Below are positions 5,457 to 53,702 of a stretch of DNA of 64,000 nucleotides, piece by piece; position 1 is the first letter of the stretch, and every line of letters starts with the position of its first letter. Location: the IMG/VR virus record IMGVR_UViG_3300032893_000037, positions 600 through 64,599 of that record; one strand, written 5' to 3'. The notes beneath the pieces are model-generated. The model made no database searches. It worked only from the letters and a program-made list of their open reading frames with translations, and had not been told where the DNA came from. This stretch comes from a virus. Both the position numbers and the translations under genes were made by a program.

Positions 5457-6827
5457 TCAGGCCGTTGTTGTCTGGATGAATTGATATGGACGGTTCATGT
5501 TGGCGAGCGAGGACGCGAAGTTCGCAATGCTCGTTCCCCAGTTCTGGTCCTGCTGGATTGAAGTCTGCATCAGCTGGCCCAAGATCGCCGACCCGATCTG
5601 GCTCTGCTGCACGCCCTCTTGATAGAGGTTCTGCGCGACTTGAGCCTTTGCCGCTTCCGCACGAACGGCATTCTCGCCTTGGGTTTGTGCGAGCGACGAC
5701 GAGCCCTCGATGCCCATGCTGGCGTATTGTTGCGCTGCGCCTGCATTCTCTGCTGCAACCGCAGACTTGAAGCCCGCATCGAGGCCCCACGGCAGCGTGC
5801 CGCCGCGCAGATACGACTCCATCTGCTGACCCTGCGAAATGTCTTTGTTCGCCACGGCTTGAAGCTGGCCGTAGCCCGGTGGCTTGCGGTTGCCTTCCAA
5901 CAGGTTCAGGCCAAGTCCGCCGACAGCGAGCAATCCCTGCGGTGATTTCAGAAAGTTTCCGGCCTGCTCACCAAGGCCCGGTGTGCCGCCCGGCGCTGTG
6001 CCGAGCGCGCCAAGCCCTGTTTCCGCTCCCGGCGCAGTCGGTGCGCCAGCTGCGCCAGTCAACGCTTGACCGCCCGCCGCGGCATCAGGATAGCCGGTGC
6101 CCAGCGACTGACCCGTTGGCAGATTTGCGCCACCACCAGATGCCAGTGCAGGGGCGACCGCGGCGCTGCCAACGTTCGTCGGCGCATTCACACCGCTCAC
6201 GTTCGATGCAGCGCCGCTGGCCGCACCGACGCCTTGCGTGCCCGGTGTTGGAGATGTCGCGAGCCCGCCGCCATTCGCCGCGAGTGTTGCGTCCGCGCCA
6301 GGGCCAGCAACAGATGCCGGTGCCGCTGTCCCTGCCGCCGATGCGCCGCCGCCACCTGTAGGCGCGCCCGACGTTGGCGTGGACCCCGGCGACAATGCGC
6401 TTGCTACGAGACCGCTGCCCAATCCGGACAGTGCGCTCGTTGCGAGATTGCGATGCGTTGCGAGCCCGCCAAGAACACCGCCAGCCGTGCCGGTCAGCGC
6501 ATCCGCAGCGGTGGTGCCGATGCCGAGTTCTTGCCCCACAAAGCCCGATGCGCCAAGCGCACCGCCCGTAAGCGCTCCGAACTCCGCGCCTTTAAGCGGG
6601 TTCTTCGGATCAGTGATTGCGCCAAGCGCACCGCCTTCCAACGCGCCCGCGCCGACACCGCCCAGTACATCAGCGGTAGCCTGACCGATGCCGAGCCCTG
6701 CTGGGCCAAGCGCGCCTGCAATCGTCCCGGAGATCGCGGCGTCAGCGGCAGTCGCTGCCGTGCCGACAGCCGCCGCTGCCGAAGAAACCGCGTCAACAAT
6801 GCCTGCAACAACAGCTGAGATGCCCAT
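5457..6827 (-). CDS. Gly/Ala-rich ejection (DNA transfer/pilot-like) protein
   Basis: Gly/Ala-rich hydrophobic N-terminus; first of three ejection-type genes. Confidence 0.65.
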   Translation of the reverse strand: MGISAVVAGIVDAVSSAAAAVGTAATAADAAISGTIAGALGPAGLGIGQATADVLGGVGAGALEGGALGAITDPKNPLKGAEFGALTGGALGASGFVGQELGIGTTAADALTGTAGGVLGGLATHRNLATSALSGLGSGLVASALSPGSTPTSGAPTGGGGASAAGTAAPASVAGPGADATLAANGGGLATSPTPGTQGVGAASGAASNVSGVNAPTNVGSAAVAPALASGGGANLPTGQSLGTGYPDAAAGGQALTGAAGAPTAPGAETGLGALGTAPGGTPGLGEQAGNFLKSPQGLLAVGGLGLNLLEGNRKPPGYGQLQAVANKDISQGQQMESYLRGGTLPWGLDAGFKSAVAAENAGAAQQYASMGIEGSSSLAQTQGENAVRAEAAKAQVAQNLYQEGVQQSQIGSAILGQLMQTSIQQDQNWGTSIANFASSLANMNRPYQFIQTTTA

Positions 6828-16249: not shown

Positions 16250-16319
16250 CAATAAACTCAAGAATGCAATATGTAGTGCTCAATAATCGCAATAACGCGA
16301 TTAGATGAGATGTAATAGA

Positions 16320-18107
16320 ATGCACGTTCCGTCTTCGAAACTTGAGAAGTTTGTCTCTGAACTTGTCAGCGAATGCTTGGTGTCGCGGCAAACGCGCATC
16401 CAGAAATACGCGGCCTACAAGAACATGTTCTTGATCGGATCGGATAACCCCGACGATGCCGCGATCTACAACAAGACGTTCGCGTACATCGATGATCTCG
16501 AAAGCCTGTTGTATTCGCCGGTCTCGCTGCGCTTTCACATCGGCGAGTACGACACGCCGACACCGCTGGAGACGGCGAAGTTTCGCGTCGCTTCATCGAA
16601 CCTGCACGCGCAAGTCCGTCAGTCGCAGCTCGATACATCCATCAGCGATGCCGTGCAGTGGTCGCTCGTCAAAGGAAAGTGCTTCATCAAGCTGAAGTGG
16701 GGCGCACACGGACTGTCGCCGCACATCGTGCAGCCGGAGATGATGGGCGTGCTGCAAGAGAACCGCATGGTACTCGACAGCGACATGGAGGCGTTCGTCC
16801 ATTCGACTTACATCACGCCGTACCAGTTCCAGCGCCTGATCTGGAACCACCCCAACAAGGCCGCGCTGATCAAGAAATCGAAGCGCTATGTCCGTCCGCC
16901 GAAGGGCCAGGATGTCGGCGACGACCAAGCGATGAAACAGATCATCATCGGCGGGCTCTACCCGTTGCAGGCCGCAGGCAGTCCGAACCCCTCGATGCAG
17001 CGCGGCATCGTGGAGTGGATGCAAGGCGGTCAGCCGGAGCTGTCGCCGAAACTCATGCACTCCATCATGCGGCTCGATGAGCTGTGGGTGTGGAACGATG
17101 AGCAGGACGATTGGTCGACGTTCCAGATCATCGGCGACGACATGCTGATCATGGGCGAGGACTTCGTAACCAACGCCTACGCCTACGACCCGGTTACCAA
17201 GACGAAGGCCGAAGCGCTCGTCGGCCATCACCCGTTCAACGAGTTCTGCCCGAACCGTATCGATAACTACTTCTGGGGCCGCTCGGAGATCGTCAACGTG
17301 GCGCTCTTGCAGGAGTGCATCAACAGTCGCGTCAACGGCATCAACCAGCTACTGCGCCGCCAAGAAGACCCGCCGAAGAAATTCCGCGGCGTGGCCGGTG
17401 TGAACCAGAACGCGCTCGCCAAACTCAACAAGCCGGGCGGCTACTGGAACGACTCCAACCCGAACGCCAACGTGGAAAACATGGCGCCTGAAATCAGTGC
17501 CGATCTCTGGGCATCGCTGCATGAATACGAGCAGATGTTCGATGAGATGGGCGGTTTGCCGCCTATCGCAAAAGGTAAAGGCGAGTCCGGCGTGCGCTCA
17601 CAGGGCCATGCCGAAACACTCGTTCGCATGTTCAGCCCGCGCTTCAAGGATCGCGCACTCTTGGTGGAACGCGGCGTTGAAAGCGTTGGCGGCGCCGTGC
17701 TCGATCTCTGCCGCGTGTATGTGCCGGAACGGATGACGGCTTGGATTGCAGCCCAAGATGCCGGTGTCGAAGTCAACGTGGCGAACAATCCGAAGAACAA
17801 CGTGCTGCGGATGCCGCCAGTCCCCGGTCAGGTGCCGGTCGACTTCGCTTATGCCGATCTGCCCGAGAACGTTCGCGTCACGGTCGACAGCCATTCGTCG
17901 TCGCCCGCGTTCGCGATGGAAGCCCGCGCCCTCGCCTTCGATCTGCTCAAGGTCGGCGCGATGGATGCGGAGCAGCTGGTCGAACATGTCGACGCACCGA
18001 ACCCGGAAGAGCTGGTCGCCGGTATCGAACGCCGTGCGGCCCAACAGGCCCAGTTCCTTGCGCAACATCCGGAAGAAGCCGTGAAGCTCGCCCAGAAAAA
18101 GAAGTGA
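16320..18107 (+). CDS. Portal protein (inverted relative to head/terminase genes)
   Basis: About 595 aa; IYNKTFAYIDDLESLLY, HHPFNEFCPNRIDNYFWGRSEIVNVALLQECINSRVN portal-type pattern. Confidence 0.8.
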   Translation: MHVPSSKLEKFVSELVSECLVSRQTRIQKYAAYKNMFLIGSDNPDDAAIYNKTFAYIDDLESLLYSPVSLRFHIGEYDTPTPLETAKFRVASSNLHAQVRQSQLDTSISDAVQWSLVKGKCFIKLKWGAHGLSPHIVQPEMMGVLQENRMVLDSDMEAFVHSTYITPYQFQRLIWNHPNKAALIKKSKRYVRPPKGQDVGDDQAMKQIIIGGLYPLQAAGSPNPSMQRGIVEWMQGGQPELSPKLMHSIMRLDELWVWNDEQDDWSTFQIIGDDMLIMGEDFVTNAYAYDPVTKTKAEALVGHHPFNEFCPNRIDNYFWGRSEIVNVALLQECINSRVNGINQLLRRQEDPPKKFRGVAGVNQNALAKLNKPGGYWNDSNPNANVENMAPEISADLWASLHEYEQMFDEMGGLPPIAKGKGESGVRSQGHAETLVRMFSPRFKDRALLVERGVESVGGAVLDLCRVYVPERMTAWIAAQDAGVEVNVANNPKNNVLRMPPVPGQVPVDFAYADLPENVRVTVDSHSSSPAFAMEARALAFDLLKVGAMDAEQLVEHVDAPNPEELVAGIERRAAQQAQFLAQHPEEAVKLAQKKK

Positions 18108-25363: not shown

Positions 25364-27080
25364 ACGAACCCCTACGCGGGCCGGTGTTGAAGCGAAACCC
25401 AACCCAGTCAAGCCCGCTGCCGACCACCACCGCGATGGCACCCAAAAACGGAATGTCGGCAAAACTTCGCGGGCCAAGCCGATCACGAAACCCATACAAG
25501 ATCAGCCCGCAGCTGGAGGCGGCAAAACTGCCTCCAGCAAAAATTCGCGCGCCAAGGCGAGATTGACTCCCATCCCAACCGTGCGCGCTGGCGACCAGAA
25601 TTATGTTGATACCCATGTCAGGCGTGTCGCCAAAAATACGCGGACCAAAGCAGCCATGCTACCCAATGTAGTAGCGTCCGCGCCCCCTAAGCCCGGCCAT
25701 CTTATTGACGGAAACCATGCGCTCATTGCCGGGCAAAAGTCTGCCGACCATCCTACCTACGCGACCCATACTGGACCTGTCGGCAGCTCTCTTTTGCGCG
25801 CCAAAAATATGGAGACATCCATCAACGACCAGCGCGCGCCCGGCCATCCTACTGGCGGAAACCACACGCTGACTGCCGGGCAAACTTCAAAGCGCGCCAA
25901 TGCTGGCGAGAACTCCATGCTCCCCTCGCGCGTTCGCCCGGCCAATCATGAATCGCTACCCACGCAGATAGCGCCGGGCAAATCTTCCAAGCGGGCCAAC
26001 ATGAAAATGCAATCCACTGCACGCCAGCCCGCCTCCGACGCCAAACTCCCCTCGCCACCCACTGGTGATCTGCGTCGGAAAAATTCTGCGGCCAACGCTC
26101 CAGCGACACCCGGAAATACACCGCCGCAGGCGGACGCCACCAACGAGGTGAAGCCCAGCACGATGGCGCGTCCGCACTCTACTCAGGCCAATGGCGAACC
26201 GTTACCCATTGCCGTAACGCCTGACGCCGACGACCAACCAGCAAGCGCGAACCATGCACGCCAAGTCGTCGGCAAATCTTCCCGTCGCCATGCAGCATCC
26301 GCAAACCGTGGAACAAGCGCGACGAATGCCGACGACCACCACCAAGGCGATGTCCACATACGACCTGTCGTCGGCCCTCACTCGCCTGCCGTCGCATTGA
26401 TCCAAGAACTACATCGCGACCGGCAAGGCTTCGCCCGCGCCGAAAAATCTCTCACGCTCCAGATCAGAGCCATCTGCCGTCGTCTCTGCGGCGGCGACAA
26501 GGATGCCGCAGCGCCGCTCTATGCCTCGCTCGATGACGACGACGAAACACATCCGCTGAAAGACGCGGCAACCGCCCGCACCGCGCCGTTCTTCACGGCC
26601 CGCAGCGTCATGAATACCAACCGGCGCGAGCGCGAGAAGCAGATGGAAAAACTCGCGCGCACTCTCCCGGCCTACAAGTTCGTGGAATCCATCCGCGGCA
26701 TCGGCGATCTCAGCTTCGCCCAGATCATCGGCGAAACCGGCGATCTCTCCATCTACCGCAATCCCGCCAAGGTCTGGAAACGTCTCGGTCTCGCCGTGTT
26801 CGACGGTCGCGCCCAGCGCCGCCACAAAGGCATGGACCAAAGCGAAGGCTACTCGCCCGAACGCCGCTCCATCGTCTGGAACGTCGGCGAAGCCATCGTC
26901 AAACACCGCGGCGAACCATATCGATCGATCTACGACGAACGCAAAGCCTACGAGCACGCCCGCAATCCGGAGATCACCAAGATGTGGGCGCATAACCGCG
27001 CCAAACGCTACATGGAAAAGCGCGTCATCCGCGATCTCTTCCGGGCATGGCGCGACGAACTGGAAGCCAAATCCTCTTAA
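25356..27080 (+). CDS. TasA-like Nop/IS110-C-terminal-domain RNA-binding protein without nuclease domain (folded part about 26397-27080)
   Basis: Coiled coil then SIRGIGDLSFAQIIGETGDLSIYRNPAKVWKRLGLAV...YRSIYDERKAYE...AHNRAKRYMEK; no DEDD RuvC, no HNH, no IS110 catalytic SG loop. Confidence 0.85.
   Translation: MLKRTPTRAGVEAKPNPVKPAADHHRDGTQKRNVGKTSRAKPITKPIQDQPAAGGGKTASSKNSRAKARLTPIPTVRAGDQNYVDTHVRRVAKNTRTKAAMLPNVVASAPPKPGHLIDGNHALIAGQKSADHPTYATHTGPVGSSLLRAKNMETSINDQRAPGHPTGGNHTLTAGQTSKRANAGENSMLPSRVRPANHESLPTQIAPGKSSKRANMKMQSTARQPASDAKLPSPPTGDLRRKNSAANAPATPGNTPPQADATNEVKPSTMARPHSTQANGEPLPIAVTPDADDQPASANHARQVVGKSSRRHAASANRGTSATNADDHHQGDVHIRPVVGPHSPAVALIQELHRDRQGFARAEKSLTLQIRAICRRLCGGDKDAAAPLYASLDDDDETHPLKDAATARTAPFFTARSVMNTNRREREKQMEKLARTLPAYKFVESIRGIGDLSFAQIIGETGDLSIYRNPAKVWKRLGLAVFDGRAQRRHKGMDQSEGYSPERRSIVWNVGEAIVKHRGEPYRSIYDERKAYEHARNPEITKMWAHNRAKRYMEKRVIRDLFRAWRDELEAKSS
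25376..26375 (+). ncRNA. TIGR-like stem-loop guide array, 20 units
   Basis: Every unit parses as 5-8 bp stem, CCA/CCG, 9 nt, TG/CG/AG, 4 nt, CCA/CCG, 9 nt, TG/CG/AG, complementary stem, e.g. tggcga CCA gaattatgt TG atac CCA tgtcaggcg TG tcgcca (25589-25632). Confidence 0.92.
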
Positions 27081-27087
27081 CCAGCCC

Positions 27088-27115
27088 TTGGCAAAGTGTG
27101 CTGGGGGTGTACAGT
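27088..27115 (+). promoter_or_regulatory. Sigma70-type promoter with GTGC-N7-GTAC motif
   Basis: TTGGCA-16 bp-TACAGT; near-copy of 24759-24787. Confidence 0.55.
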
Positions 27116-27146
27116 TAACCCTTCTTTAGCCGAAGGGACATCCACA

Positions 27147-27596
27147 ATGGGACTACTGGCATTACTCGCCACTGTGGCAGTCAAGCCTGCGCGGACGAAA
27201 GCCGCCCAGGATGTGCGTCTGTCACCAGCGGCCATCAGACGTAGCCGACTCAATCACTTCGCCGACATCATGGAAAACTACAGCGGCCCACTCCTGCTGA
27301 TGTCGCGCATCGAACTGGCAACCAAAGCGCAGCGGGCGCGAATGCGTCTGCCAAACTCCCCGCTCGCCGTCGCGTACGCCGATCCAACCTTCAAGGCACT
27401 CGGTCTCGCCGACGACAGGTTCGGAACAGGCCGCGTCTTCTTGGGCCTCACCCCCCGTGAAGCCCACGAGCTGGTGTGCGACTGCCACTACTTCGGCCCA
27501 ATCAACGGGCACATGGTGGCGCACCGGGCTCGCTGGATGGCGGATCACCCTTCACTCCTGAAGCGTATCAACCTTTTCTTTGCCCGCTTCGTGTAA
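27147..27596 (+). CDS. Hypothetical protein
   Basis: SD aaggga; HELVCDCHYFG motif. Confidence 0.65.
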   Translation: MGLLALLATVAVKPARTKAAQDVRLSPAAIRRSRLNHFADIMENYSGPLLLMSRIELATKAQRARMRLPNSPLAVAYADPTFKALGLADDRFGTGRVFLGLTPREAHELVCDCHYFGPINGHMVAHRARWMADHPSLLKRINLFFARFV

Positions 27597-27603
27597 CCTT
27601 GAC

Positions 27604-27640
27604 GCCGCGCTCGTCTTCGTTGTTCGGGCGCGGCTTTTTC
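27604..27640 (+). terminator. Intrinsic terminator
   Basis: GCCGCGCTCG/CGGGCGCGGC stem followed by TTTTT. Confidence 0.65.
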
Positions 27641-27653
27641 TCAGGGAGACACC

Positions 27654-27737
27654 ATGACCATCGGTGACGGCATCGGGCTGGCAGGCTTGTTCCTCGCCAT
27701 CGCCTTCATGATCTACGCCGTGATGCGGTGGGGTTGA
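27654..27737 (+). CDS. 27-aa membrane peptide
   Basis: SD agggag; MTIGDGIGLAGLFLAIAFMIYAVMRWG. Confidence 0.5.
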   Translation: MTIGDGIGLAGLFLAIAFMIYAVMRWG

Positions 27738-28027
27738 TGACGCGCGTCCGGCAGCACATTCCTGGCTACGTCACCGGCCTCCAGCCGGAGATCGCCAACG
27801 CCCACTCGCACAGCGAACTGCTCAATCTGCCGTTCGTGTTCGTGTGGACCCGCGATCCCCAGTTCGATCATTGGGAACGCGCTACCGACTACTCACCCGA
27901 CGAATGGCTCTTGGTCGCGAAAATGAAAGATGGCCGTCATTGGGTCGCAGCCTATGTCGGCATGGACCTTAAATCGCCACTGCCCGAATTCCAGATGCAC
28001 CGCGCATCCGTCGACATCACGGTTTGA
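27737..28027 (+). CDS. Hypothetical protein
   Basis: TGATG coupling. Confidence 0.55.
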   Translation: MTRVRQHIPGYVTGLQPEIANAHSHSELLNLPFVFVWTRDPQFDHWERATDYSPDEWLLVAKMKDGRHWVAAYVGMDLKSPLPEFQMHRASVDITV

Positions 28028-28754
28028 GCCGCGACATCATATCGTCAAACACCGACATCGGCGGCTGCTCCGCAATGCGATACAGCTGGCGCAATGCCAT
28101 CGCCTCAAAGGCGCTGATGCTCATGAGGTTCGGCGTATCCAGCCACGTAATCTTCGCGTATTGCGCGCGGTAGCCGTCCTGATGCTCCACGATCTGGCCC
28201 CACAGCTTCACGCGGCCTAAAACCCGAACGCCACCCGAGTAAGCGTACGCCCACGGCTTAAACCGCCACGCATGGATGCCGTGCGTGTTGTGCTGCGTCG
28301 GCAGCACGTCCGCTTCCTTGATCTCTCCAGGGTGCCACACGCACCCCGGAAAGGCACAAGAGCAAAGAAGCGTGTCGGTGCGTTCGTTATGACCGGCACT
28401 GAAATCGTTGTGCCGATTGCTGTTGCCGATCTCCCAGCACCGCCACGCTTCGATCTCGCCTAGGCGTATTCCGGCGTCGTGAAATCCTGAGTAGAGCGTT
28501 TGGATTCCGACTCCGATTGCTTCGCAGGCTGCTGTGGCTCTTGAAGCTTTGAGGCCGAAACGTCCAACGCATTCGATCCATCCACTGCTTCCGTGAGCGG
28601 GATCGCAGTAAATGTCTTCAGCGCTATACCAATCATCATGAAAGAGTTCTCCTGCGTTCGTGATCGGGATGAAGGTTGGCGGTGACGTGTAACCCGAACC
28701 GGGGCTAACCACCCGAACTGTCGGCTGAAACTTCGGGCCACCAAACAGCGCCAT
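28017..28754 (-). CDS. Hypothetical protein, possible ART-like fold
   Basis: SD ggagg; AWRCW...GIHAW...VLGRVKLWGQIVEHQDGYRAQYA. Confidence 0.65.
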   Translation of the reverse strand: MALFGGPKFQPTVRVVSPGSGYTSPPTFIPITNAGELFHDDWYSAEDIYCDPAHGSSGWIECVGRFGLKASRATAACEAIGVGIQTLYSGFHDAGIRLGEIEAWRCWEIGNSNRHNDFSAGHNERTDTLLCSCAFPGCVWHPGEIKEADVLPTQHNTHGIHAWRFKPWAYAYSGGVRVLGRVKLWGQIVEHQDGYRAQYAKITWLDTPNLMSISAFEAMALRQLYRIAEQPPMSVFDDMMSRLKP

Positions 28755-28773
28755 CACCACCTCCGTCCCTTGG

Positions 28774-28792
28774 GTGTACCACACCAGCACAC
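28774..28792 (-). promoter_or_regulatory. GTGC-N7-GTAC motif
   Basis: Minus strand GTGTGCTGGTGTGGTACAC, 20 nt before ATG 28754. Confidence 0.55.
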
Positions 28793-28834
28793 CCGCAAAC
28801 GGCAGGAAAGAGGCTTCAGGAAAAGGGCTGTGGA

Positions 28835-29098
28835 TTAGGCGAACTGAACACGCAGCGCATGGGTCGGGAAGCCCTCGGCCTCACGCACCGCATCGACAGC
28901 GATAATGGCGCGGTTCATCTGTGCCCGCGAAACAAATCCATGCCAAAGCTGTAAACGCCCAAAGTCCGGGTCCTGAAGGATCACCGCGCCACAACAATCG
29001 TCCCAGCTCTTCACCGGCATGATGCTGCTCGCCCGCACAATCGCCGGAGCGCAGATCAGCGCGCCAAGCCCAGTCAGGAGCAAGCGGCGGGTGGTCAT
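28835..29098 (-). CDS. Small protein with Tat-signal-like N-terminus
   Basis: MTTRRLLLTGLGALICAPAIVRASS. Confidence 0.6.
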   Translation of the reverse strand: MTTRRLLLTGLGALICAPAIVRASSIMPVKSWDDCCGAVILQDPDFGRLQLWHGFVSRAQMNRAIIAVDAVREAEGFPTHALRVQFA

Positions 29099-29307
29099 TT
29101 CTCTATTTCCCGAAACGCTTCCTCGATCTCGGCGTCCGTCGTCTCAGGCCGATAACGCAGGATCGTAACCCGTAGCGCGCTACGATATGCGCCGCGCCAT
29201 CGCTTCAACCGCGCGATCTCGTCCGCCGCCGCGTCCAGTATCGCCTCTTCCGAAGCGCCACGCTGGCCTTCGTTCGACATGGCGCGGAGGGTGCGCTCTT
29301 CGGACAT
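29095..29307 (-). CDS. Hypothetical protein
   Basis: Coupled ORF. Confidence 0.55.
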   Translation of the reverse strand: MSEERTLRAMSNEGQRGASEEAILDAAADEIARLKRWRGAYRSALRVTILRYRPETTDAEIEEAFREIEK

Positions 29308-29501
29308 CAGAAGCCTCTGACTATCGGCTCGATGCCGTCCAGCGCCACCCGCAAAATGTCACGCAGATGGCACGCATCTTCGAACGTCAGCTTCAGGCCG
29401 TGCGCACCCTTGATGTTGATCGTCGGCTCAGTGCCAACCCACTCCAGCCTGAACCCGCCAGAATCCGGCTTCACAGCGAACAGGATCGGGATGTCACTCA
29501 T
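29307..29501 (-). CDS. Hypothetical protein
   Basis: Coupled ORF MSDIPILFAVKP. Confidence 0.5.
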   Translation of the reverse strand: MSDIPILFAVKPDSGGFRLEWVGTEPTINIKGAHGLKLTFEDACHLRDILRVALDGIEPIVRGF

Positions 29502-29715
29502 CGAACTCGTCCATGTAAGCGTCCAGATCGTCCAAGCCGATGATCTTGTGATCGGCAATCTGCGGAAACGATACAGGCTCGAATGTCTCAGGAAAGGTGC
29601 AGGGCCGATACCCGTAGCACGCGCACTCTTTGCACTCACCAAGGTGATCGACAGCCGCACCGCGCCAATGATCGTCCCGCGCGTGGCCGCAGAGGCAGAG
29701 GGCAGTAAACTCCAT
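29494..29715 (-). CDS. Small Cys-rich protein
   Basis: CLCGH...CKECAC. Confidence 0.55.
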   Translation of the reverse strand: MEFTALCLCGHARDDHWRGAAVDHLGECKECACYGYRPCTFPETFEPVSFPQIADHKIIGLDDLDAYMDEFDE

Positions 29716-30032
29716 CAGTTCTCACTCGTCCCGATGTAGCCGTGCTTCTTCATGCAGGCTTCAATCGCAGGATCAATCTGGTTCGGCAGCATCGGCGGAT
29801 GCTCCGCATCAGCAGACGCCTTCAACACGCCACCAAGCAGTCCCAGCGGCGCGAAAACACCAAAACCATTGTGCTGCGAGGCGAAATACACGCGGTTTAC
29901 TTCATCACGACATTCATTGAGATCGGCAGAGAGGCGGTCAGATGAGCCGGGACCGTTGGGAATGACAGCGTAGTTATCGTGCGCGCAACCCGTGAGAAGG
30001 GCCAGGAACGGGAGGATAAAGCGTGTGCGCAT
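29715..30032 (-). CDS. Lipoprotein
   Basis: Lipobox LLTGC after hydrophobic signal. Confidence 0.7.
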   Translation of the reverse strand: MRTRFILPFLALLTGCAHDNYAVIPNGPGSSDRLSADLNECRDEVNRVYFASQHNGFGVFAPLGLLGGVLKASADAEHPPMLPNQIDPAIEACMKKHGYIGTSEN

Positions 30033-30046
30033 GGCATGTCCCCTGT

Positions 30047-30065
30047 GTGTGCGCGCAGTGTACAC
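30047..30065 (+). promoter_or_regulatory. GTGC-N7-GTAC motif
   Basis: GTGTGCGCGCAGTGTACAC upstream of the lipoprotein operon. Confidence 0.5.
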
Positions 30066-30373
30066 CGGGGATGCGCGTGGGGGAATTTTTTTGGCGGGGA
30101 GAGGGGTGGTAGCTCGATTTTTTGTATCTCACTCGTCCCATCGGGGGTGCGGGGCGCGAGGGCGGGTCCGATCTGGCACGGGTCCGCCCGCGCACCTAGC
30201 GCGCACCTAACAAAGCGCTAAGGACGCATAACGCTTTGATAAGCCTGGAAGATTTCGAGTGGGCAAACTGTCTTTTACTCAGTTTCCTGGACGATTGCGC
30301 GCGCGTTGCGGGGCGGAAATGGCGCGGAAACGGACGATTTTCGCGGCGGAAACCGCGACGCTAAGCCCCTAAC

Positions 30374-30607
30374 TCACGCAACGTCCGTGAAGCGTTCTCC
30401 GCCTTGGACGACTGGCCGCGGTGTCAAAACACGCGTAGGCGCGAGGGGAACGACAAGCTGCGGATTTACCGGGAGATTTACCGGAAGCGGGTTTGCAGCC
30501 AAAAAGGCGCGCAATGCCGTCTTGAGTAAGCCGCTTTGTGTCATTCCCCGCGCCTTGGCATAGGCTACGGCCGCTTCCCTTTCTCGCCGCGGCAATTTCA
30601 CTGCCAT
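30374..30607 (-). CDS. CopG/RHH DNA-binding protein
   Basis: MAVKLPRREREAAVAYAKARGMTQSGLLKTALRAFL. Confidence 0.65.
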   Translation of the reverse strand: MAVKLPRREREAAVAYAKARGMTQSGLLKTALRAFLAANPLPVNLPVNPQLVVPLAPTRVLTPRPVVQGGERFTDVA

Positions 30608-30693
30608 AGGCGTTACTGCTGCCAAATCAAGCCCCTTGCTAAGTCCTAGGCCCTTGTCCTAATCTGCGGACCTAACCCTAGGAGAATGAAACC

Positions 30694-31041
30694 ATGTCAT
30701 TCATGCAGCAACAAATCACGGCGCGGTGTCTCTGGATCGAAATTGACGGAGACAACGGCACTACGTTCGTTCCCGCTGATGTTGTTGGTGGCGGATGGAC
30801 GGATGGCGAAGAGTTCACGCGCGAAAATGATGCTTTCGACACAAGGCGCGCCATCGTCCGCGATTATTACGAAGGGTCTCGCATTTGGGAAATCAAGACA
30901 CGCATGGGATACGGCGCGCGCCTTTCCGCTCCCGGTTACATGGATTGCACGGAATGGTCCGTCTTCGACACTGAACAAGCCGCGCAAGAGTATTTAGACG
31001 AAACGTACGGGGACGAAACCGAAGACGACACCGACGAATAG
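30694..31041 (+). CDS. Early-region hypothetical protein
   Basis: Preceded by CCTAGGAGA RBS; acidic. Confidence 0.7.
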   Translation: MSFMQQQITARCLWIEIDGDNGTTFVPADVVGGGWTDGEEFTRENDAFDTRRAIVRDYYEGSRIWEIKTRMGYGARLSAPGYMDCTEWSVFDTEQAAQEYLDETYGDETEDDTDE

Positions 31042-31117
31042 TCCGTACACGGTAGGGCGCGCTAACCCCGCGTCCGTCCGCGTGCGAACGGCACGGTAAC
31101 CTAGGAGACCAGAAACC

Positions 31118-31642
31118 ATGTTTAGCGATATCGTTCTAATCGACTACGCAAAGCCGCTTAAGGCGCGCCTTGAAAGCCGCAAATATTGCGGCCCCTATCA
31201 CTGGAAACCGACAGAAGCGGGAAAAGGGCGCGGCTTTTATCAAGCGTCTAGTGGACTACGCGTTGACGCGCACGGCAGTTCCTTTGATCTCCGCTTGGAA
31301 CTGGCAAACGACCATATTCGCCGCAGTGCCCGCTTCCGTTATGTCGAAGGCTACTACTGCGACGAATTCCAAGATTGCACGATGGTTCCGGTTATCGCGC
31401 GCCTACCACACTCGCGCGGCTTTCTAGCGGGCTGGACCATGGGGAACGGTATGTGCGGCTCCCTTGGTGGCACTGTGTACACAACGGCAGAGGATGCGGC
31501 GATTGCGGCGCATAGCGACGCGGAATATGACGCGCAACGTCAACGCGAATTTGAAGAGCAGGAACGTGCGCGCATCGCAGAAGAGGAACGCGAAGCAGAG
31601 GAACGCAACGCCGAAATGGACACGCTAGAACGCGACTATTGA
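31118..31642 (+). CDS. Early-region hypothetical protein
   Basis: CCTAGGAGA RBS. Confidence 0.7.
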   Translation: MFSDIVLIDYAKPLKARLESRKYCGPYHWKPTEAGKGRGFYQASSGLRVDAHGSSFDLRLELANDHIRRSARFRYVEGYYCDEFQDCTMVPVIARLPHSRGFLAGWTMGNGMCGSLGGTVYTTAEDAAIAAHSDAEYDAQRQREFEEQERARIAEEEREAEERNAEMDTLERDY

Positions 31643-48737: not shown

Positions 48738-49994
48738 TCAGGCCGCATTGGCGAGCGGGTGGGCTTCGTGGCCGACCAGTTTAGCAAGGAACTCACCCCA
48801 CTTGTCCAGCGCTGCCTTCTTCTCCGCGAGGTAGGTGTTCTTGTTGTAGATGCGGGCGGTGATGCTGGCCTTGGTGACGCTGATGTGGTTCAGGACGTGG
48901 CTGATGTGCAGCTCCGGGATCGCCAGCGCATTTTCCTCCAGCGACATCTGCGTGGCGACCGAGCGGCGCAGATCGTGCGGCGTCCAGTAAGGGATGCCGA
49001 ACTTGCCCATGGGCGCCTTGGCCGTCTTCTTCTGGGCGAGCTGGAGCGCCTTGTTGACGATGTGGTGCGACTGGCAGTCCTCGCCGCTGTCGTCGGGGAA
49101 CAGGAAGCGGCTGTTGGTTTTGCTCATGGCGTCGACCACCAGCTCCATGGCGAGCGCGTTGAGCGGCACCACATGCTCGCGCTTGTTCTTCACCCGCTCC
49201 GCGGGGATCGTCCAGATGCGGGCCTGAAGGTCGATCTCGTCCCGCGTCATGCCCAGCACTTCGCCCACCCGCTGCCCGGTCGCCAGACAGAGCTTCAGGA
49301 TCGTCACCAGAGACTTGGAGCGGGGGAAGACGTGCGGCAGCAGCGCCCACACGGTTTCGATCTCTGCGGTGCTCAGCCAGCGCTCCTTGGCGTTTTCCGG
49401 GGCGGGCTGGTCGGCGTTGGCGATGGGCGAGAACTGGATCGCACCGCGCTTGACCGCGAAGTTAAAGAGGCTGCGCAGATCGGAGAACACCCGGTTGGCT
49501 TGGATCGGCGCGCCGCGCTTCACGATGGGGTCCACGACCGCATTGAGATGTGGATCGATCCTGAACTTCGCGACCGGCACCGAGCCAACGATGGGCTTCA
49601 CGTTGGCGGTGAAGCGGCGAGTGATCTCATCGATGGTGCGACGGCCCTTGGGCTTCAGGCACATTTCCACCCAGTCGCCAAAGATGTCACTGACGGTCTT
49701 CTCCGCGAACTGGAGGCTGGTGGCGACGAGCGCCGGGTCCTCGCCCTTCTCGATGAGGCCCTTGCACTCCGTGGCCTTGATGCGCGCGTCGGCAAGGCTC
49801 AGGCCCGGATAGAGCCCGAGCGACATCCGCGAGCGCTTGCCGTCGACCGGCGACGTGTACGTGAAGCTCCACGTCTTGCGGCCCTTGTCCGTCACGCGGA
49901 TCGACAAGCCAGGGCAGAGCACGTCGAAATAATCCGTCTGCGCTGTCGCCGACTTCGCGGCGTCGATGAACTTGGGTGTGAGGCTGGTTTTCAT
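48738..49994 (-). CDS. int: Tyrosine integrase with N-terminal arm-binding domain
   Basis: ATGQRVGEV, WTPHDLRR, HVLNH, IYN; N-terminal GLSIRVT..GRKTW. Confidence 0.95.
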   Translation of the reverse strand: MKTSLTPKFIDAAKSATAQTDYFDVLCPGLSIRVTDKGRKTWSFTYTSPVDGKRSRMSLGLYPGLSLADARIKATECKGLIEKGEDPALVATSLQFAEKTVSDIFGDWVEMCLKPKGRRTIDEITRRFTANVKPIVGSVPVAKFRIDPHLNAVVDPIVKRGAPIQANRVFSDLRSLFNFAVKRGAIQFSPIANADQPAPENAKERWLSTAEIETVWALLPHVFPRSKSLVTILKLCLATGQRVGEVLGMTRDEIDLQARIWTIPAERVKNKREHVVPLNALAMELVVDAMSKTNSRFLFPDDSGEDCQSHHIVNKALQLAQKKTAKAPMGKFGIPYWTPHDLRRSVATQMSLEENALAIPELHISHVLNHISVTKASITARIYNKNTYLAEKKAALDKWGEFLAKLVGHEAHPLANAA

Positions 49995-50325: not shown

Positions 50326-50400
50326 GAGCCCATAGCTCAACGGATAGAGCACCGCACTTCTAATGCGGGTATGCCGGTTCGATTCCGGCTGGGCTTGCCA
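50326..50400 (+). tRNA. tRNA-Arg(TCT)
   Basis: Cloverleaf, loop CTTCTAA, CCA. Confidence 0.9.
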
Positions 50401-50405
50401 CGATC

Positions 50406-50672
50406 ATGGAGGACGCTGTGAGCGGGACGGAAGCCTTTCTGGAATTGGATGACAAGAAGCTTGCCCAGCTGTTTCGAGATTTCTGTCGCACCGTCGCGGA
50501 GGCCGCTGGCACCAACCGCTTTCACGTCGTGATGGCCTTCTACACCACGGAAGGCTGCACCTCGATTTGCACAAGTGGGGACAAGATGACCGACCTCGCG
50601 ATCTTGGAGCGCATCATGACCGACATCATGAACGGCGCGGGCGAGCGCGATGTCGGGCCGCTCGATGGTTGA
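50406..50672 (+). CDS. Hypothetical protein
   Basis: 88-aa ORF. Confidence 0.5.
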   Translation: MEDAVSGTEAFLELDDKKLAQLFRDFCRTVAEAAGTNRFHVVMAFYTTEGCTSICTSGDKMTDLAILERIMTDIMNGAGERDVGPLDG

Positions 50673-50747
50673 TGGTTCCCCGTCGTGGTTTCGAACCACG
50701 CTGGCCGGTTTCAAGGACCGGCGACCTCACCAGAAGTCGAACGGGGA
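50673..50747 (-). tRNA. tRNA-Gln(TTG), atypical (C33, Glu-like D arm)
   Basis: Loop CCTTGAA, T1-A72, CCA. Confidence 0.7.
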
Positions 50748-50748
50748 A

Positions 50749-50824
50749 TGGTCCACCCTGCGGGACTTGAACCCAGCTCCTGCGATTTGAAAGACCGCTG
50801 ACCTAACCCATGGTCGAAGGGTGG
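50749..50824 (-). tRNA. tRNA-Glu(TTC)
   Basis: Loop CTTTCAA, CCA. Confidence 0.85.
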
Positions 50825-50825
50825 G

Positions 50826-50901
50826 TGGCACGAGTGCTCGGAATCGAACCGAGGTTTGCGGTTTTGGAGACCGCCGTCGTGAGCCTCTGGACCACACTCG
50901 T
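50826..50901 (-). tRNA. tRNA-Trp(CCA)
   Basis: Loop CTCCAAA. Confidence 0.9.
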
Positions 50902-50903
50902 AT

Positions 50904-50977
50904 TGGAGCGGGTGACGGGAATCGAACCCGTGTCGTCGGTTTGGAAGACCGAAGCTCTACCCCTGAGCTACGCCCGC
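50904..50977 (-). tRNA. tRNA-Gly(TCC)
   Basis: Loop CTTCCAA. Confidence 0.9.
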
Positions 50978-50981
50978 AAGC

Positions 50982-51055
50982 TGGAGCGGATGAGCGGGAT
51001 CGAACCGCCGTACTCGCATTGGCAACGCGATGCTCTGCCATTGAGCTACATCCGC
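50982..51055 (-). tRNA. tRNA-Gly(GCC)
   Basis: Loop TTGCCAA. Confidence 0.9.
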
Positions 51056-51056
51056 T

Positions 51057-51131
51057 TGGAGAGGCGAGCCGGGATCGAACCGGCTCTTGGCGGTTTTGCA
51101 GACCGCAGCGTTCCCATTTCGCCATCGCCTC
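51057..51131 (-). tRNA. tRNA-Cys(GCA)
   Basis: Loop CTGCAAA, U73. Confidence 0.9.
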
Positions 51132-51138
51132 AGTGAAC

Positions 51139-51212
51139 TGGATCAGGGACACGGATTCGAACCGCGATTGCCGCATTCAGAGTGCGGAGTCTTACCGTTG
51201 GACGATCCCTGA
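51139..51212 (-). tRNA. tRNA-Gln(CTG)
   Basis: Loop CTCTGAA, T1-A72. Confidence 0.9.
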
Positions 51213-51213
51213 G

Positions 51214-51288
51214 TGGTGCCGAAGCGTGGAATTGAACCACGTACGCCCGCAGCTTCAGTGCGGCGCTCTACCGATGAGCTACAACGGC
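51214..51288 (-). tRNA. tRNA-Phe(GAA)
   Basis: Loop CTGAAGC. Confidence 0.85.
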
Positions 51289-51366
51289 AGGGAGAACGAG
51301 TGCTGGCTTAGCGCCAACAACCTCGCCCGGTTTCAGGAAATCGTTGCTGTCGATTGAGCGCGCGAA

Positions 51367-51441
51367 TGGCTGCGTAGGTCGGATTCGAACCGACATACTG
51401 CTCGTTAACAGCGAGTTCGCTTACCTGTCGCGCACTACGCA
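51367..51441 (-). tRNA. tRNA-Asn(GTT)
   Basis: Loop CTGTTAA, T1-A72. Confidence 0.85.
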
Positions 51442-51662
51442 TTGAGCCTTCCCATTCGCTGGTGTGTGTGCCGCTGACTACCAACCCCGCTCCAGTACAT
51501 CCGTGTTTGCGAGATCGGCGCAGCGGCCAACGACGGCTTTGTGCCGGAGCCGCGCCAGCGAGTCAAGCGACTCGACTCCAGCCCGCTGTGCTCCTATATG
51601 CACACCCTCACCCGCCGCGGAGGTCAGCCATGACATAGGAAACCTGACAATGAGGACCAGTC

Positions 51663-51845
51663 ATGGCTGGCAATCCTACCCGCAAGGGCGGACGCAAGAA
51701 CCGTAAGCATGGACGCTTCAAGCTGAAGTGCGCGGCATATGCGAGCAGTCACCGCCAAGAGAAGAACAAGAAGCGCAAGCTCCTTCGCCATCTCAAAAAA
51801 CACCCCAACGACAACCAAGCAGAGAGCGCCGTCAAGGCGCTCTAA
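51663..51845 (+). CDS. 60-aa highly basic protein
   Basis: SD gagga; Lys/Arg/His-rich. Confidence 0.55.
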   Translation: MAGNPTRKGGRKNRKHGRFKLKCAAYASSHRQEKNKKRKLLRHLKKHPNDNQAESAVKAL

Positions 51846-52264
51846 CTGCGTTTGGCCCTCTTCACCGCGGGCGCAATCACCGGCTTGTCACGCTTGCCGA
51901 GCCCGGATGCCTTCGCGAGTTCGGAGCGCGTCTTGGCGTAGTTCGGCGCAACAAGAGGATGGTCGAACGCCAACCCGAACCTAGCCCGGTATGCTTCCGG
52001 GGTAAGATCATGCTCGGAACGCAGATGCCGCTTCAGCATCGCGAGGCTCATGCCGCATTCCAGACACGTCACCGTGTCGGTGCCGATTGACTTCTTGATC
52101 GGCACCTTGGGGGCGGCGATGGCGGGCACCGGGTCCTTTCCGAGCCCTGATAGCGTATTGAAGGTCGAAGTAATGAACCCTGGCAGCTCTGCCATCAGCA
52201 GTTTGTTGTTCGCCAGATAGGCCGAAACAATGGCCGCTGTACTGGTCAAGATGTGTTCAGACAT
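51842..52264 (-). CDS. mucR: MucR/Ros-family regulator
   Basis: TAAIVSAYLANN...KKSIGTDTVTCLECGMSLAMLKRHL..EHDLTPEAYRARFGL...VAPNYA. Confidence 0.9.
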   Translation of the reverse strand: MSEHILTSTAAIVSAYLANNKLLMAELPGFITSTFNTLSGLGKDPVPAIAAPKVPIKKSIGTDTVTCLECGMSLAMLKRHLRSEHDLTPEAYRARFGLAFDHPLVAPNYAKTRSELAKASGLGKRDKPVIAPAVKRAKRS

Positions 52265-52337
52265 TGGTTGCCCCTTCGTCCCAAAGAAGTAACCCTTCTC
52301 CAATACAAGGGATTCGCGCCCCAAGTCTAGCGGGGGC

Positions 52338-52421
52338 TGGAGGGCCGTGCAGGAGTCGAACCTGTTGCGGGCGGATTAAAAGTCCGTTGCCGTACCTCAC
52401 TGGCTTTACGCTCACGGCCCT
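52338..52421 (-). tRNA. tRNA-Lys(TTT) with enlarged D region
   Basis: Loop CTTTTAA; 84 nt. Confidence 0.7.
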
Positions 52422-52551
52422 TCAAGGGGCGCGGCCAGCGTGTGTTGTCCGCAGCACACTGGGCGCACCGGAGGGCCTTCCATCCCCCCGGCAGCTCAAC
52501 ATCGGGTTTTTCGTTTCTGCATTGGATGCACAGCATGACACGTCGATGGAG

Positions 52552-52627
52552 TGGCGGGCCGGGTGAGATTCGAACTCACGACCTCCGGATTAAGAGTCCA
52601 GCCTTCTGACCTCTGAATTACCGGCCC
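52552..52627 (-). tRNA. tRNA-Lys(CTT)
   Basis: Loop CTCTTAA. Confidence 0.9.
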
Positions 52628-52632
52628 TGAAT

Positions 52633-52708
52633 TGGCGCACGCGGCAGGAATCGAACCCACGACCCTCGCATTCGTAGTGCGATGCTCTATCCGCTGAGCT
52701 ACGCGTGC
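52633..52708 (-). tRNA. tRNA-Arg(ACG)
   Basis: Loop CTACGAA. Confidence 0.9.
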
Positions 52709-52713
52709 AAAAC

Positions 52714-52790
52714 TGGTGTTCCCGATTGGATTTGAACCAACAACCTGCGCCTTCGGAGGGCGCTGCGCTAATCCGTTGCGCCACGGGAAC
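52714..52790 (-). tRNA. tRNA-Arg(CCG)
   Basis: Loop CTCCGAA. Confidence 0.9.
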
Positions 52791-52791
52791 A

Positions 52792-52866
52792 TGGCGCCCA
52801 CGACGGGAATCGAACCCGCCTCAACGGCGTGACAGGCCGGTATCGTCACCAGACGACAACGTGGGC
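52792..52866 (-). tRNA. tRNA-Asp(GTC)
   Basis: Loop CTGTCAC. Confidence 0.9.
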
Positions 52867-52872
52867 CTAAAC

Positions 52873-52947
52873 TGGTTGTGCGGGAGGGATTCGAACCCAC
52901 GATTAACACCTTATGAGGGTGCAGTTTTACCACTAAACTACCGCACG
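52873..52947 (-). tRNA. tRNA-Met(CAT), initiator-like C1xA72 mismatch
   Basis: Loop CTCATAA; acceptor CGTGCGG/CCGCACA. Confidence 0.8.
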
Positions 52948-53370
52948 CAATCTGGCTTGCTGACGCTTCACGGCACACGAGCGCGAGCAGGCGGGATCGG
53001 TTTTCCCATACGCCCGGCGCGCCGACAGCAAAAACCCTTTCCCGCACACACCGCAGATGAATTCATACATGGTCACCTTTCGGGTCCGAGCGTATTTCTC
53101 GTAGTTCTCCTGCCGTGACAGGATTTGAAAATTATCAATGCGATCATCCGTCTTGTCGTCGTTGAGGTGATCGACGGTTTCTTGTTTTCCCAGTTCCCGG
53201 CCCAAGTTAACTGCCATGATGTAGCGCGCGTATGAGATCGTCTTGCGCTTTTTGCCCGGCACGACCGGAACGAGGCACGCCATGCGCCGCCGCATTTTTC
53301 GGTGTGGCACAACATAGAGAACATAGTCGCCATACGGCGGCTCCGCTGGCCGTCCAATGCTATGCGCCAT
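52933..53370 (-). CDS. HNH homing endonuclease inside the tRNA cluster
   Basis: YARYIMAVNLGREL..QETVDHLNDDKTDDRIDNFQIL; C-terminal CGVC...CSRSC. Confidence 0.85.
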   Translation of the reverse strand: MAHSIGRPAEPPYGDYVLYVVPHRKMRRRMACLVPVVPGKKRKTISYARYIMAVNLGRELGKQETVDHLNDDKTDDRIDNFQILSRQENYEKYARTRKVTMYEFICGVCGKGFLLSARRAYGKTDPACSRSCAVKRQQARLRAVV

Positions 53371-53384
53371 CGCTCTCTCCTATT

Positions 53385-53533: not shown

Positions 53534-53537
53534 GAAT

Positions 53538-53615: not shown

Positions 53616-53616
53616 A

Positions 53617-53693: not shown

Positions 53694-53702
53694 TTGAAGG
53701 GT

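Follow-up and report, generated by a model that had tools for sequence, protein, structure and literature searches.

A probable stem-loop TIGR-TasA system with a 20-unit guide array inside the tas reading frame of a temperate tailed phage

TasA is the nuclease-free protein of a system for RNA-guided DNA binding that entered the literature in 2025–2026, and its stem-loop form (stem-loop TIGR-TasA) has been the subject of three reports (Faure et al., 2025, PMC12045711; bioRxiv 10.64898/2026.09.09.750476; bioRxiv 10.64898/2026.08.11.744272). [quoted passage not shown] Known stem-loop TasA proteins include PlTasA (from a Peromyscus leucopus gut contig), BlTasA (Bifidobacterium longum) and MbTasA (Minisyncoccota), and published stem-loop arrays comprise a mean of ~7 units (17,756 tigRNAs in 2,559 arrays).

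The window analyzed here is a stretch of 64,000 nucleotides (positions 600 to 64,599 of the IMG/VR record IMGVR_UViG_3300032893_000037) of a phage genome from a wetland source, which is complete at 67 kb, with direct terminal repeats and a CheckV estimate of 100%. With a probability of about 0.88, it carries a stem-loop TIGR-TasA system of a temperate tailed phage; the locus is a real example of an already published kind and leaves the picture of such systems unchanged. Like the PlTasA, BlTasA and MbTasA systems, it is phage-borne and combines a nuclease-less Nop-domain protein with variable covarying stems, shows no Y/H processing loop, has its units inside the tas frame and carries CUU-type motifs in its linkers. 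Unlike them, it has 20 units rather than a mean of ~7, the ORF is extended at its 5′ end by 347 codons made up of the whole array, many units follow each other head-to-tail without a linker, and the G is the only fixed nucleotide of box D. It also differs by a coupled conserved upstream gene that is unmentioned in these three papers. Two questions concern this young field, namely which targets the spacers have in nature and how stem-loop tigRNAs are made, and a complete 67-kb phage with 20 guides, five module-less siblings and a conserved coupled gene is a useful natural case; it lets one test guides against sibling phages, the translation of an intragenic array and the need for the partner gene. 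The features of the locus are listed in Table 1.

Table 1. Position of the features of the TIGR-TasA locus (window coordinates) and spacers of each unit
Feature	Position	Strand	Basis	Details
Promoter-like site before the operon	24759..24787	+	Read from sequence, predicted	TTGGCA-17-TACAGA, embeds GTGCTGGCCGTGTAC
Conserved upstream gene	24821..25363	+	tblastn, alignment	180 aa, all-helical
Full tas ORF	25356..27080	+	ORF list	574 aa = 347 array-encoded codons + 227-aa core
Stem-loop TIGR array	25376..26375	+	Regex, alignment, stem pairing, covariance model	20 dual-spacer units
Unit 1	25376..25417	+		Box C = CCG; spacers GTGTTGAAG / ACCCAGTCA
Unit 2	25418..25461	+		Spacers CCACCGCGA / AAAACGGAA
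Unit 3	25469..25510	+		Spacers AGCCGATCA / TACAAGATC
Spacer-less hairpin	25512..25538	+		9-bp stem, in the 36-nt linker that joins unit 3 to unit 4
Unit 4	25547..25588	+		Spacers AGGCGAGAT / TCCCAACCG
Unit 5	25589..25632	+		Spacers GAATTATGT / TGTCAGGCG
Unit 6	25639..25682	+		Spacers AAGCAGCCA / ATGTAGTAG
Unit 7	25691..25734	+		Spacers TCTTATTGA / TGCGCTCAT
Unit 8	25741..25786	+		Spacers TCCTACCTA / TACTGGACC
Unit 9	25795..25838	+		Spacers AAAATATGG / TCAACGACC
Unit 10	25838..25881	+		Spacers TCCTACTGG / CACGCTGAC
Unit 11	25891..25934	+		Spacers ATGCTGGCG / TGCTCCCCT
Unit 12	25936..25979	+		Spacers ATCATGAAT / CGCAGATAG
Unit 13	25991..26032	+		Spacers ACATGAAAA / CTGCACGCC
Unit 14	26034..26079	+		Spacers AACTCCCCT / CTGGTGATC
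Unit 15	26085..26130	+		Spacers ACGCTCCAG / GAAATACAC; sole guide with a 17/18 match in a sibling phage
Unit 16	26130..26175	+		Spacers CCAACGAGG / GCACGATGG
Unit 17	26183..26224	+		Spacers ATGGCGAAC / TTGCCGTAA
Unit 18	26226..26273	+		Spacers ACCAGCAAG / TGCACGCCA
Unit 19	26283..26324	+		Spacers TGCAGCATC / TGGAACAAG
Unit 20	26328..26375	+		Spacers CCACCAAGG / CATACGACC
TasA core	26397..27080	+		Coiled coil + Nop-type C-terminal domain, 227 aa, without nuclease domain
Promoter-like site of the next gene, after tas	27088..27115	+	Sequence, predicted	TTGGCA-16-TACAGT; delimits the tas operon on its 3′ side

A sequence-only reading of this DNA had described 20 consecutive hairpins enclosing the pattern CCR-N9-HG-N4-CCR-N9-HG. 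A search with the expression CC[AG]-N9-[ACT]G-N4-CC[AG]-N9-[ACT]G recovered all 20 cores one after the other between 25381 and 26336, and the unit starts given in that reading are all right; the expression also matches one out-of-register overlap at 25534 and 11 scattered places in the remaining 63 kb. Each unit carries CCR-N9-NG-N4-CCR-N9-NG and measures 42–48 nt, with a G+C-rich stem of 5–8 bp and a loop closed by an invariant C:G pair, and an ungapped alignment of the 20 units shows six invariant columns, that is, both C's of each box C (CCA in 37 of 40 boxes, CCG in 3 of 40) and the G, alone fixed, of each box D. The flanks of the units are variable but palindromic throughout, which is the arrangement of stem-loop TIGR arrays. 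Stem cells are paired in 90.6% of cases compared to 62% after shuffling (0 of 500 shuffles as high) and pairing falls to 27–41% when the partner is slid; 47 stem cells are changed on both sides, and five stem positions are paired in all 20 units with CG/GC/AU/UA swaps. The stems vary, as had been noted, and yet pair in 20 of 20 units by way of compensatory changes, and the 40 nine-mers likewise vary, showing no significant similarity to each other nor any significant duplication-divergence of spacers within the array. Many units stand head-to-tail without a linker and several linkers contain a CUU(C) motif. A covariance model made from the units retrieved no further copy in the window at E<0.3, and a relaxed form of the expression gave no second cluster over the whole 67-kb genome. 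Among 80 related IMG/VR loci, units were detected next to tas in about 50, with at most 12 units per locus, and the array of 20 units is the longest. The relative L001 has a small hairpin between units, similar to the spacer-less one in Table 1.

The core of the protein is, by sequence comparison and in its predicted fold, a Tas homologue. A phmmer search against the PDB gave TasR (9MTY) at 6.4e-13 and TasH at 4e-4, and the AF2 model of the core (pLDDT 95.8) retrieved in Foldseek 9MTY TasR at the top (TM 0.70, E 4e-8), TasH next, IS621/ISCro4 behind them (TM ~0.46 for IS621) and Prp31/Nop5 weakly (TM ~0.37, E ~0.5–0.9). The core can be aligned over its full length with the coiled coil and C-terminal domain of TasR (224 columns). 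Pfam matched it with PF02371 (Transposase_20) only, at 5.6e-6, the PHROG label is 'transposase', and the 227 aa are taken up entirely by coiled coil and C-terminal domain, with no RuvC, HNH or DEDD domain. This nuclease-less core places the protein in the TasA subtype; the fold and the TIGR-Tas assignment, in its TasA form, that had been proposed from the letters alone agree with the homology, the model and the published stem-loop anatomy. The model ends in a helix (residues 195–226 of 227) with no extended C-terminal Y/H processing loop. The core has 3302 relatives in the representative library and 695 cluster representatives at E<1e-30.

TaTasR (9MTY, from a dual-repeat TIGR-TasR system) and SpTasH (9W04, 9VZX) come first among the matches of the core, in sequence as in fold, and share with it the coiled-coil dimer scaffold, the Nop-type RNA-binding domain and the dual-spacer logic. 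They carry RuvC or HNH and cut DNA, whereas the core here has no nuclease; their arrays consist of conserved edge and loop repeats that yield 36-nt tigRNAs, and variable stems replace the edge repeats here. IS110 bridge-RNA recombinases (IS621, 8WT6/8WT9; ISCro4, 9T56) have a homologous RNA-binding C-terminal domain (PF02371) and a split-loop guide, but the present locus lacks a DEDD/RuvC-like domain and a catalytic serine region, and has many short guides in place of one bridge RNA. Membership in the IS110 transposase family was rejected, as there is no DEDD_Tnp_IS110 match and the IS621 fold match is weaker than that of Tas. With box C/D sRNPs (Nop5/Nop56/58) and Prp31 the locus has in common a Nop-type domain, a guide with box C/D and C′/D′ and two guide segments; unlike them, the fold match is weak, no K-turn, L7Ae or fibrillarin partners occur here, and the target would be DNA, judging from what is published on TasA. 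The system would work much as nuclease-free CRISPR effectors do (type IV, type V-M, dCas9-like repression), through RNA-guided DNA binding that stops transcription or replication without cleavage, and such effectors are often borne by mobile genetic elements. They differ in having unrelated proteins, one spacer on one strand, PAM dependence, conserved repeats and usually adaptation genes. A CRISPR-Cas assignment was rejected because Tandem Repeats Finder found no conserved direct repeats in the array and the stems differ between units.

The array lies within the tas ORF on the same strand, and the frame is open from the ATG at 25356 through all 20 units; intragenic arrays had already been reported (Xu, 2026). 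The extent previously proposed for the protein (26397–27080) holds for the Tas core, and the protein is probably longer given this open frame; its 574-aa product is entry P0002 of the public protein library. Any open frame was obtained in only 8 of 5000 dinucleotide shuffles, and a phase test gave P=0.0014. In the related loci, 79 of 104 upstream units are in the tas frame, the other two frames having 34 and 16; among the 14 loci with at least three units, the tas frame is open throughout in 8 and each of the others in 0. The ATG at 25356 overlaps the stop codon TAA (25361–25363) of the upstream gene, an in-frame start at that stop is found in the window and in 17 of the 19 related loci with this gene, and in 15 of these 19 loci a start codon is absent from the vicinity of the core. 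The most likely start of tas translation is therefore 25356, with coupling to the upstream stop, although this ATG has no Shine-Dalgarno of the clarity found in relatives. AGGAGG often precedes the in-frame start in related loci. If started there, translation would turn the array into a basic, disordered N-terminal tail of 347 aa as well. Searches with this part gave nothing in Pfam at E<0.1, nothing in PHROG and neither a feature nor a fold match in the Atlas (TM at most 0.21). The array frame lacks a coding signature (GC3 of 0.61 versus 0.76–0.80 in real genes) and Tas starts right at the core in the relatives L072 and L063; because of these two observations the translated tail may be a by-product.

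In 28 of the 80 related loci, tblastn places a homologue of the upstream gene immediately before tas. The protein of this gene is without relatives in Pfam, PHROG or PDB and without a named one in AFDB, and a PDB profile search, Foldseek against PDB and AFDB, a homologue search and the Atlas gave neither name nor function.

From published TasA work we infer that the locus is expressed and processed and that its products bind DNA and repress. One transcript, probably starting from the 24759 site, would contain the 180-aa gene, the 20-unit array and the tas core. Each 42–48-nt unit would fold into a G+C-rich stem closing a box C/D loop, in the order box C (CCA), 9-nt spacer A, box D (NG), 4-nt linker, box C′, 9-nt spacer B and box D′. 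TasA would dimerize via its coiled coil and bind each unit via the Nop-type domain, while the linkers would be trimmed by host RNases; several linkers contain CUU(C), a motif reported at processing sites. The RNPs are then predicted to recognize 18-bp DNA sites independently of a PAM, with spacers A and B pairing to opposite strands, and, since TasA has no nuclease, to block transcription or replication rather than cut. The sequence-only reading had likewise proposed DNA binding instead of cutting, in line with experiments published for TasA (bioRxiv 10.64898/2026.09.09.750476). The targets would lie elsewhere than in the genome of the phage itself, likely in competitor phages or in the host.

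Several other explanations were weighed against this one. The locus could be a genuine TIGR-TasA relative with an output other than transcriptional repression of foreign DNA, such as an aid to integration or partition (DNA bending, ParB-like), an action on RNA, or recruitment of the upstream protein as an effector. Faure et al. (2025; PMC12045711) raised integrase-aid and ParB-linked roles, this phage has a tyrosine integrase, a conserved gene is translationally coupled to tas in most related loci that have it, and the own and sibling genomes gave no target beyond one weak match. Nevertheless, the only TasA proteins tested are sequence-specific DNA binders and repressors (bioRxiv 10.64898/2026.09.09.750476) and neither Pfam nor fold comparison shows the upstream protein to be ParB-like, which leaves a different output improbable.

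It is less probable still that the locus is a decayed IS110-family insertion sequence, in which a C-terminal fragment of a transposase stands beside REP- or terminator-like hairpins devoid of guide function. The single Pfam match and the PHROG label would suit such a remnant, but sequence and fold are nearer to TasR/TasH than to IS621/ISCro4, no DEDD remnant is left (the N-terminal region being an array-encoded low-complexity stretch) and the clade that includes the protein is large, conserved and nuclease-less. Unlike REP elements, the hairpins combine a fixed box C/D geometry with 40 different nine-mers and covarying stems, and tas relatives in unrelated phages keep the same unit anatomy. 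Just as hard to sustain is the idea that this 1-kb stretch mainly codes for an N-terminal domain of low complexity in the 574-aa product, the hairpins being incidental. A frame open beyond chance and continuous with tas speaks for it; on the other hand, the GC3 bias of coding sequence is absent, the compensatory stem changes and the fixed nucleotide spacing ignore codon phase, the units occur in two phases with lengths not set by multiples of 3, and the same units in relatives also lie outside the ORF or downstream of tas. A stem-loop TIGR-TasA system is thus the reading retained here.

Guide targets were searched with both half-site orders of each guide. In the own 67-kb genome, where the phage's own promoters had been suggested as targets, the best match of all 20 guides has 3 mismatches, equal to the non-physical control orders, and this suggestion is not supported. 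For competing phages, also suggested, there is one weak lead: the unit 15 guide ACGCTCCAGGTGTATTTC agrees at 17 of 18 positions (P ~0.03) with the site ATGCTCCAGGTGTATTTC, which lies in a sibling phage's SSB-like gene. It is the single near-perfect match among sibling phages and a lead only to a candidate target, while the flanks of the 80 relatives showed no enrichment and the 183 distinct guide pairs of these loci gave no excess over controls when compared with all loci and this genome. In the 18-mer searches that had been proposed, an exact scan of IMG/VR returned 0 matches for unit 5 and 2 for unit 9, the latter rejected as chance since both are in unrelated contigs of 34–40% GC. A metagenome scan with AYGCTCCAGGTGTATTTC returned 35 stretches in unrelated contexts (GC 0.28–0.70), with the SSB-like gene only on the already known sibling contig; 18-mers are therefore not unique at metagenome scale and the scan adds no support. 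A wider proposal, which we regard as speculative and rather doubtful, is that the array has a dual use in this TasA subclade: it would be translated from a start coupled to the 180-aa partner, excision of tigRNAs would compete with ribosome passage and so set the protein-to-guide ratio, the partner would be a new component (processing or effector), and the guides would serve inter-phage competition, with unit 15 directed against the SSB-like replication gene of a module-less sibling.

The phage encodes a tyrosine integrase, and the TIGR-TasA module, absent from five complete sibling phages, is probably an accessory island of this temperate tailed phage. A search of genome contigs with a single protein returned one distant MAG contig only and no host clue. 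Membership in a curated Rfam family was rejected, only tRNAs reaching the gathering score in the window. Among public runs, two wetland DNA metagenomes only carry this DNA, and the sequence is identical in both. The promoter-like sites at 24759 and 27088–27115 are near-identical to each other, with spacings of 17 and 16.

The locus belongs, with a probability that we put at about 0.9, to the stem-loop TIGR-TasA modules, a kind of system already published and experimentally characterised. TIGR-Tas was defined by Faure et al. (2025) (PMC12045711, sections 4, 9, 10), who reported expression of stem-loop arrays with TasA and their processing to individual hairpin units. A catalogue of 2,559 stem-loop arrays and 17,756 tigRNAs described arrays that lie within the tas frame, leaving it unbroken and encoding disordered regions, a CUU motif that marks processing boundaries, and experiments in which TasA acts as an RNA-guided transcriptional repressor (Xu et al., 2026, bioRxiv 10.64898/2026.09.09.750476). 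Cryo-EM structures showing a TasA and its stem-loop tigRNA on DNA have also been described (bioRxiv 10.64898/2026.08.11.744272). All the defining sequence features of the family were tested and are present at the locus, and the TIGR-TasA interpretation of the sequence-only reading was correct. What is distinctive here is the 20-unit array (published stem-loop arrays have a mean of about 7 units), which is entirely intragenic and in frame, the conserved coupled partner gene and the occurrence of complete sibling phages without the module. The public runs containing the locus DNA are two wetland DNA metagenomes only, with identical sequences.

Features of the TIGR-TasA locus, its phage and the sibling-phage record L108
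Feature	Position	Strand	Remarks
600-aa ORF	16305-18107		conserved in siblings
terminase-like ORF	19063-20964		conserved in siblings
promoter-like site	24759-24787	+	TTGGCA-17-TACAGA; 5' of 180-aa gene, read from sequence
180-aa upstream gene	24821-25363	+	immediately 5' of tas in 28/80 related IMG/VR loci (alignment A3)
tas ORF	25356-27080		574 aa
array	25376-26375		20 units
TasA core (P0001)	26397-27080		227 aa
promoter-like site	27088-27115	+	TTGGCA-16-TACAGT, near-identical to the first; 3' of tas stop
tyrosine integrase	48738-49994	-	PF00589, 1.2e-23
28 tRNA genes	50326-56859		block adjoining integrase
215-aa ORF	L108:15176-15823	-	phrog_862; SSB-like acidic tail (…EDDIPL)
unit-15 site	L108:15603-15620		codons 68-74 of 215-aa ORF

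The strict expression CC[AG]-N9-[ACT]G-N4-CC[AG]-N9-[ACT]G matched all 20 reported cores serially, head to tail, and also gave one out-of-register overlap and just 11 scattered matches across the remaining 63 kb. Units measure 42-48 nt and carry a G+C-rich stem of 5-8 bp immediately flanking the core; in their ungapped alignment (A2) six columns are invariant, namely the CC of either box C and the G of either box D. Of the 40 C boxes, 37 read CCA, and box D is NG, the nucleotide preceding the G being C, U or A. When pairing was scored over the stem, the C:G closing pair and the G:C pair that closes the 4-nt inner loop, 90.6% of the cells were paired versus 62% in shuffles (0/500 as high) and 27-41% with a slid partner, and five stem positions are paired in every one of the 20 units through CG/GC/AU/UA exchanges. 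The 20-hairpin array first read from the sequence is therefore upheld, with covarying stems. Comparison of the 40 nine-mers among themselves found no relatedness. Since the units conserve structure and not sequence, it is as expected that Tandem Repeats Finder detected no repeat in the array and that Rfam held no family matching it. A covariance model of the units found no further copy in the window at E<0.3, nor did a relaxed expression find a second cluster in the whole genome. Short linkers (0-3 nt) alternate with longer ones (5-11 nt), so that the majority of units form abutting pairs; the longer linkers are A-rich, several with CTTC. The array's single long linker (36 nt) holds a hairpin with a 9-bp stem that has neither boxes nor spacers (25512-25538, + strand), and a comparable small hairpin lies between two units of the relative L001 (about 5925-5945). 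Among 80 related loci the longest array has 12 units. In several relatives, e.g. L011 (the same locus as L001; unit at 5666-5711), the tas ORF still encloses a tigRNA unit at its 3' end, ahead of the stop codon, and more units follow downstream of tas and end at a terminator; in the window no units lie downstream of tas.

The core of the protein had been read as a nuclease-less Nop-type protein, and both its sequence and its fold are TasR-like. Transposase_20 is its sole Pfam match, and among PDB sequences it matches TasR (9MTY, 6.4e-13) and TasH (4e-4). The AlphaFold model (pLDDT 95.8, from an alignment of 40 homologues) has TasR 9MTY as its top Foldseek match (TM 0.70 over 224 aligned columns), followed by TasH entries and the IS621/ISCro4 recombinases (TM about 0.46), with Prp31 and Nop5 far lower (TM about 0.37). 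It consists throughout of a coiled coil and a C-terminal domain, with a long helix at the end and no C-terminal Y/H loop. RuvC, HNH and DEDD domains are absent, which makes it the TasA form. The family is large: a cut-off of E<1e-3 gives 3302 cluster representatives, one of E<1e-30 gives 695.

From ATG 25356 the tas frame runs without a stop across all 20 units, versus 4-10 stops in the five other frames; any open frame arose in just 8/5000 dinucleotide-preserving shuffles, and the chance of all units being open, given the stop-free phases of each unit, is 0.0014. Units occupy two of the three phases, the avoided one placing the TG of box D at a codon start. Among non-redundant relatives, 79/104 contiguous upstream units lie in a stop-free run in the tas frame (34 and 16 in the other frames), and of the loci with at least three units, 8/14 have the tas frame open throughout and none has another frame open. 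The N-terminal extensions of called homologues span 10-340 residues, the window's 347 being the longest among the best 150. ATG 25356 and the stop codon of the 180-aa upstream gene overlap (ATGCTTAA), and an in-frame start overlaps or abuts the corresponding stop in 17/19 related loci having the gene, often with AGGAGG 7-10 nt ahead of it; 15 of these 19 have no start codon at 45 nt or less from the core. In L001, which is 51% identical, the identical ATGCTT start is the sole candidate. Because of this frame and start-codon evidence translation of the array appears likely in the subclade, and in the window the array is probably translated. Against a role at the protein level, the array frame lacks coding bias (GC3 0.61 versus 0.76-0.80 in coding sequence), its product is basic (pI 11), rich in A/P/T/S/R/K and free of Cys, Phe and Trp, with no structural relatives found, and in certain relatives Tas starts at the core. 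For these reasons the translated tail may be a tolerated by-product, or a means of coupling translation to guide production.

Since promoter-like sites precede the 180-aa gene and follow the tas stop, the two genes look like one operon. Both sites contain GTGCTGG-NN-GTGTAC within their spacers and bracket the operon; a phage-wide operator/promoter motif noted earlier is consistent with this pair. The 180-aa protein is modelled as all-helical (pLDDT 86). Searches of Pfam, PHROG, PDB, AFDB, the protein collection and the Atlas yielded no named relative for it, and by Pfam and fold it is not ParB-like. The gene is not mentioned in the TIGR papers (PMC12045711; bioRxiv 10.64898/2026.09.09.750476; 10.64898/2026.08.11.744272); its product is a candidate for a partner, so far undescribed, in this TasA subclade.

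Guide targets were sought with both half-site orders, A+rc(B) and rc(B)+A, always run against non-physical orders and mispaired spacers. In the phage's own genome the best guide match has 3 mismatches, as in the controls, which leaves the suggested targeting of its own promoters by full 18-bp pairing unsupported, and 183 guide pairs of relatives showed no enrichment against all loci. The two 18-mers proposed for searching (units 5 and 9) gave 0 and 2 chance-like matches in IMG/VR, and 18-nt guides are therefore not assignable in very large collections. Against 488 kb of sibling phages the 20 guides gave a single match with 1 mismatch, between unit 15 in the form ACGCTCCAGGTGTATTTC and ATGCTCCAGGTGTATTTC (17/18) in IMGVR_UViG_3300010048_000004 (L108), a phage whose major head protein is 87% identical. 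The 3880 control 18-mers (mispaired-spacer controls) give an expected 0.031 such matches, hence a P of about 0.03. The sibling site is the sole IMG/VR occurrence of the pattern; a scan of metagenomes brought up 35 unrelated stretches and did not bring up another copy of the 215-aa gene, which has no homologue in the window phage or the remaining siblings. A true targeting of the sibling phage by unit 15 is improbable on this evidence, and the match should be taken as a lead and no more than that.

The phage genome, an IMG/VR record of 67,025 bp, has direct terminal repeats (127 bp) and is estimated to be complete. Besides the integrase it encodes a major head protein and carries RecE/RecT-like genes as well as a replication-protein gene; a terminase-like match is weak (E 2.6e-4). 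The 28 tRNA genes are an unusually full set for a temperate phage of 67 kb. Five complete phages whose major head proteins are 68-87% identical lack TasA, and the tested ORFs of about 21.6-31.6 kb, the tas operon included, have no homologue in them. By this gene comparison, the stretch of some 10 kb at about 21600-31600 is a variable accessory island. The phages carrying the most similar TasA have unrelated capsid genes and, as the siblings are module-less, the TIGR-TasA module is a mobile accessory island. Two provirus records of one isolate genome (L018/L019; IMGVR_UViG_2546826724_000005 and _000001) appear to share a TasA module, a likeness that rests on equal identity to the query (50%) and equal spacing of the detected units.
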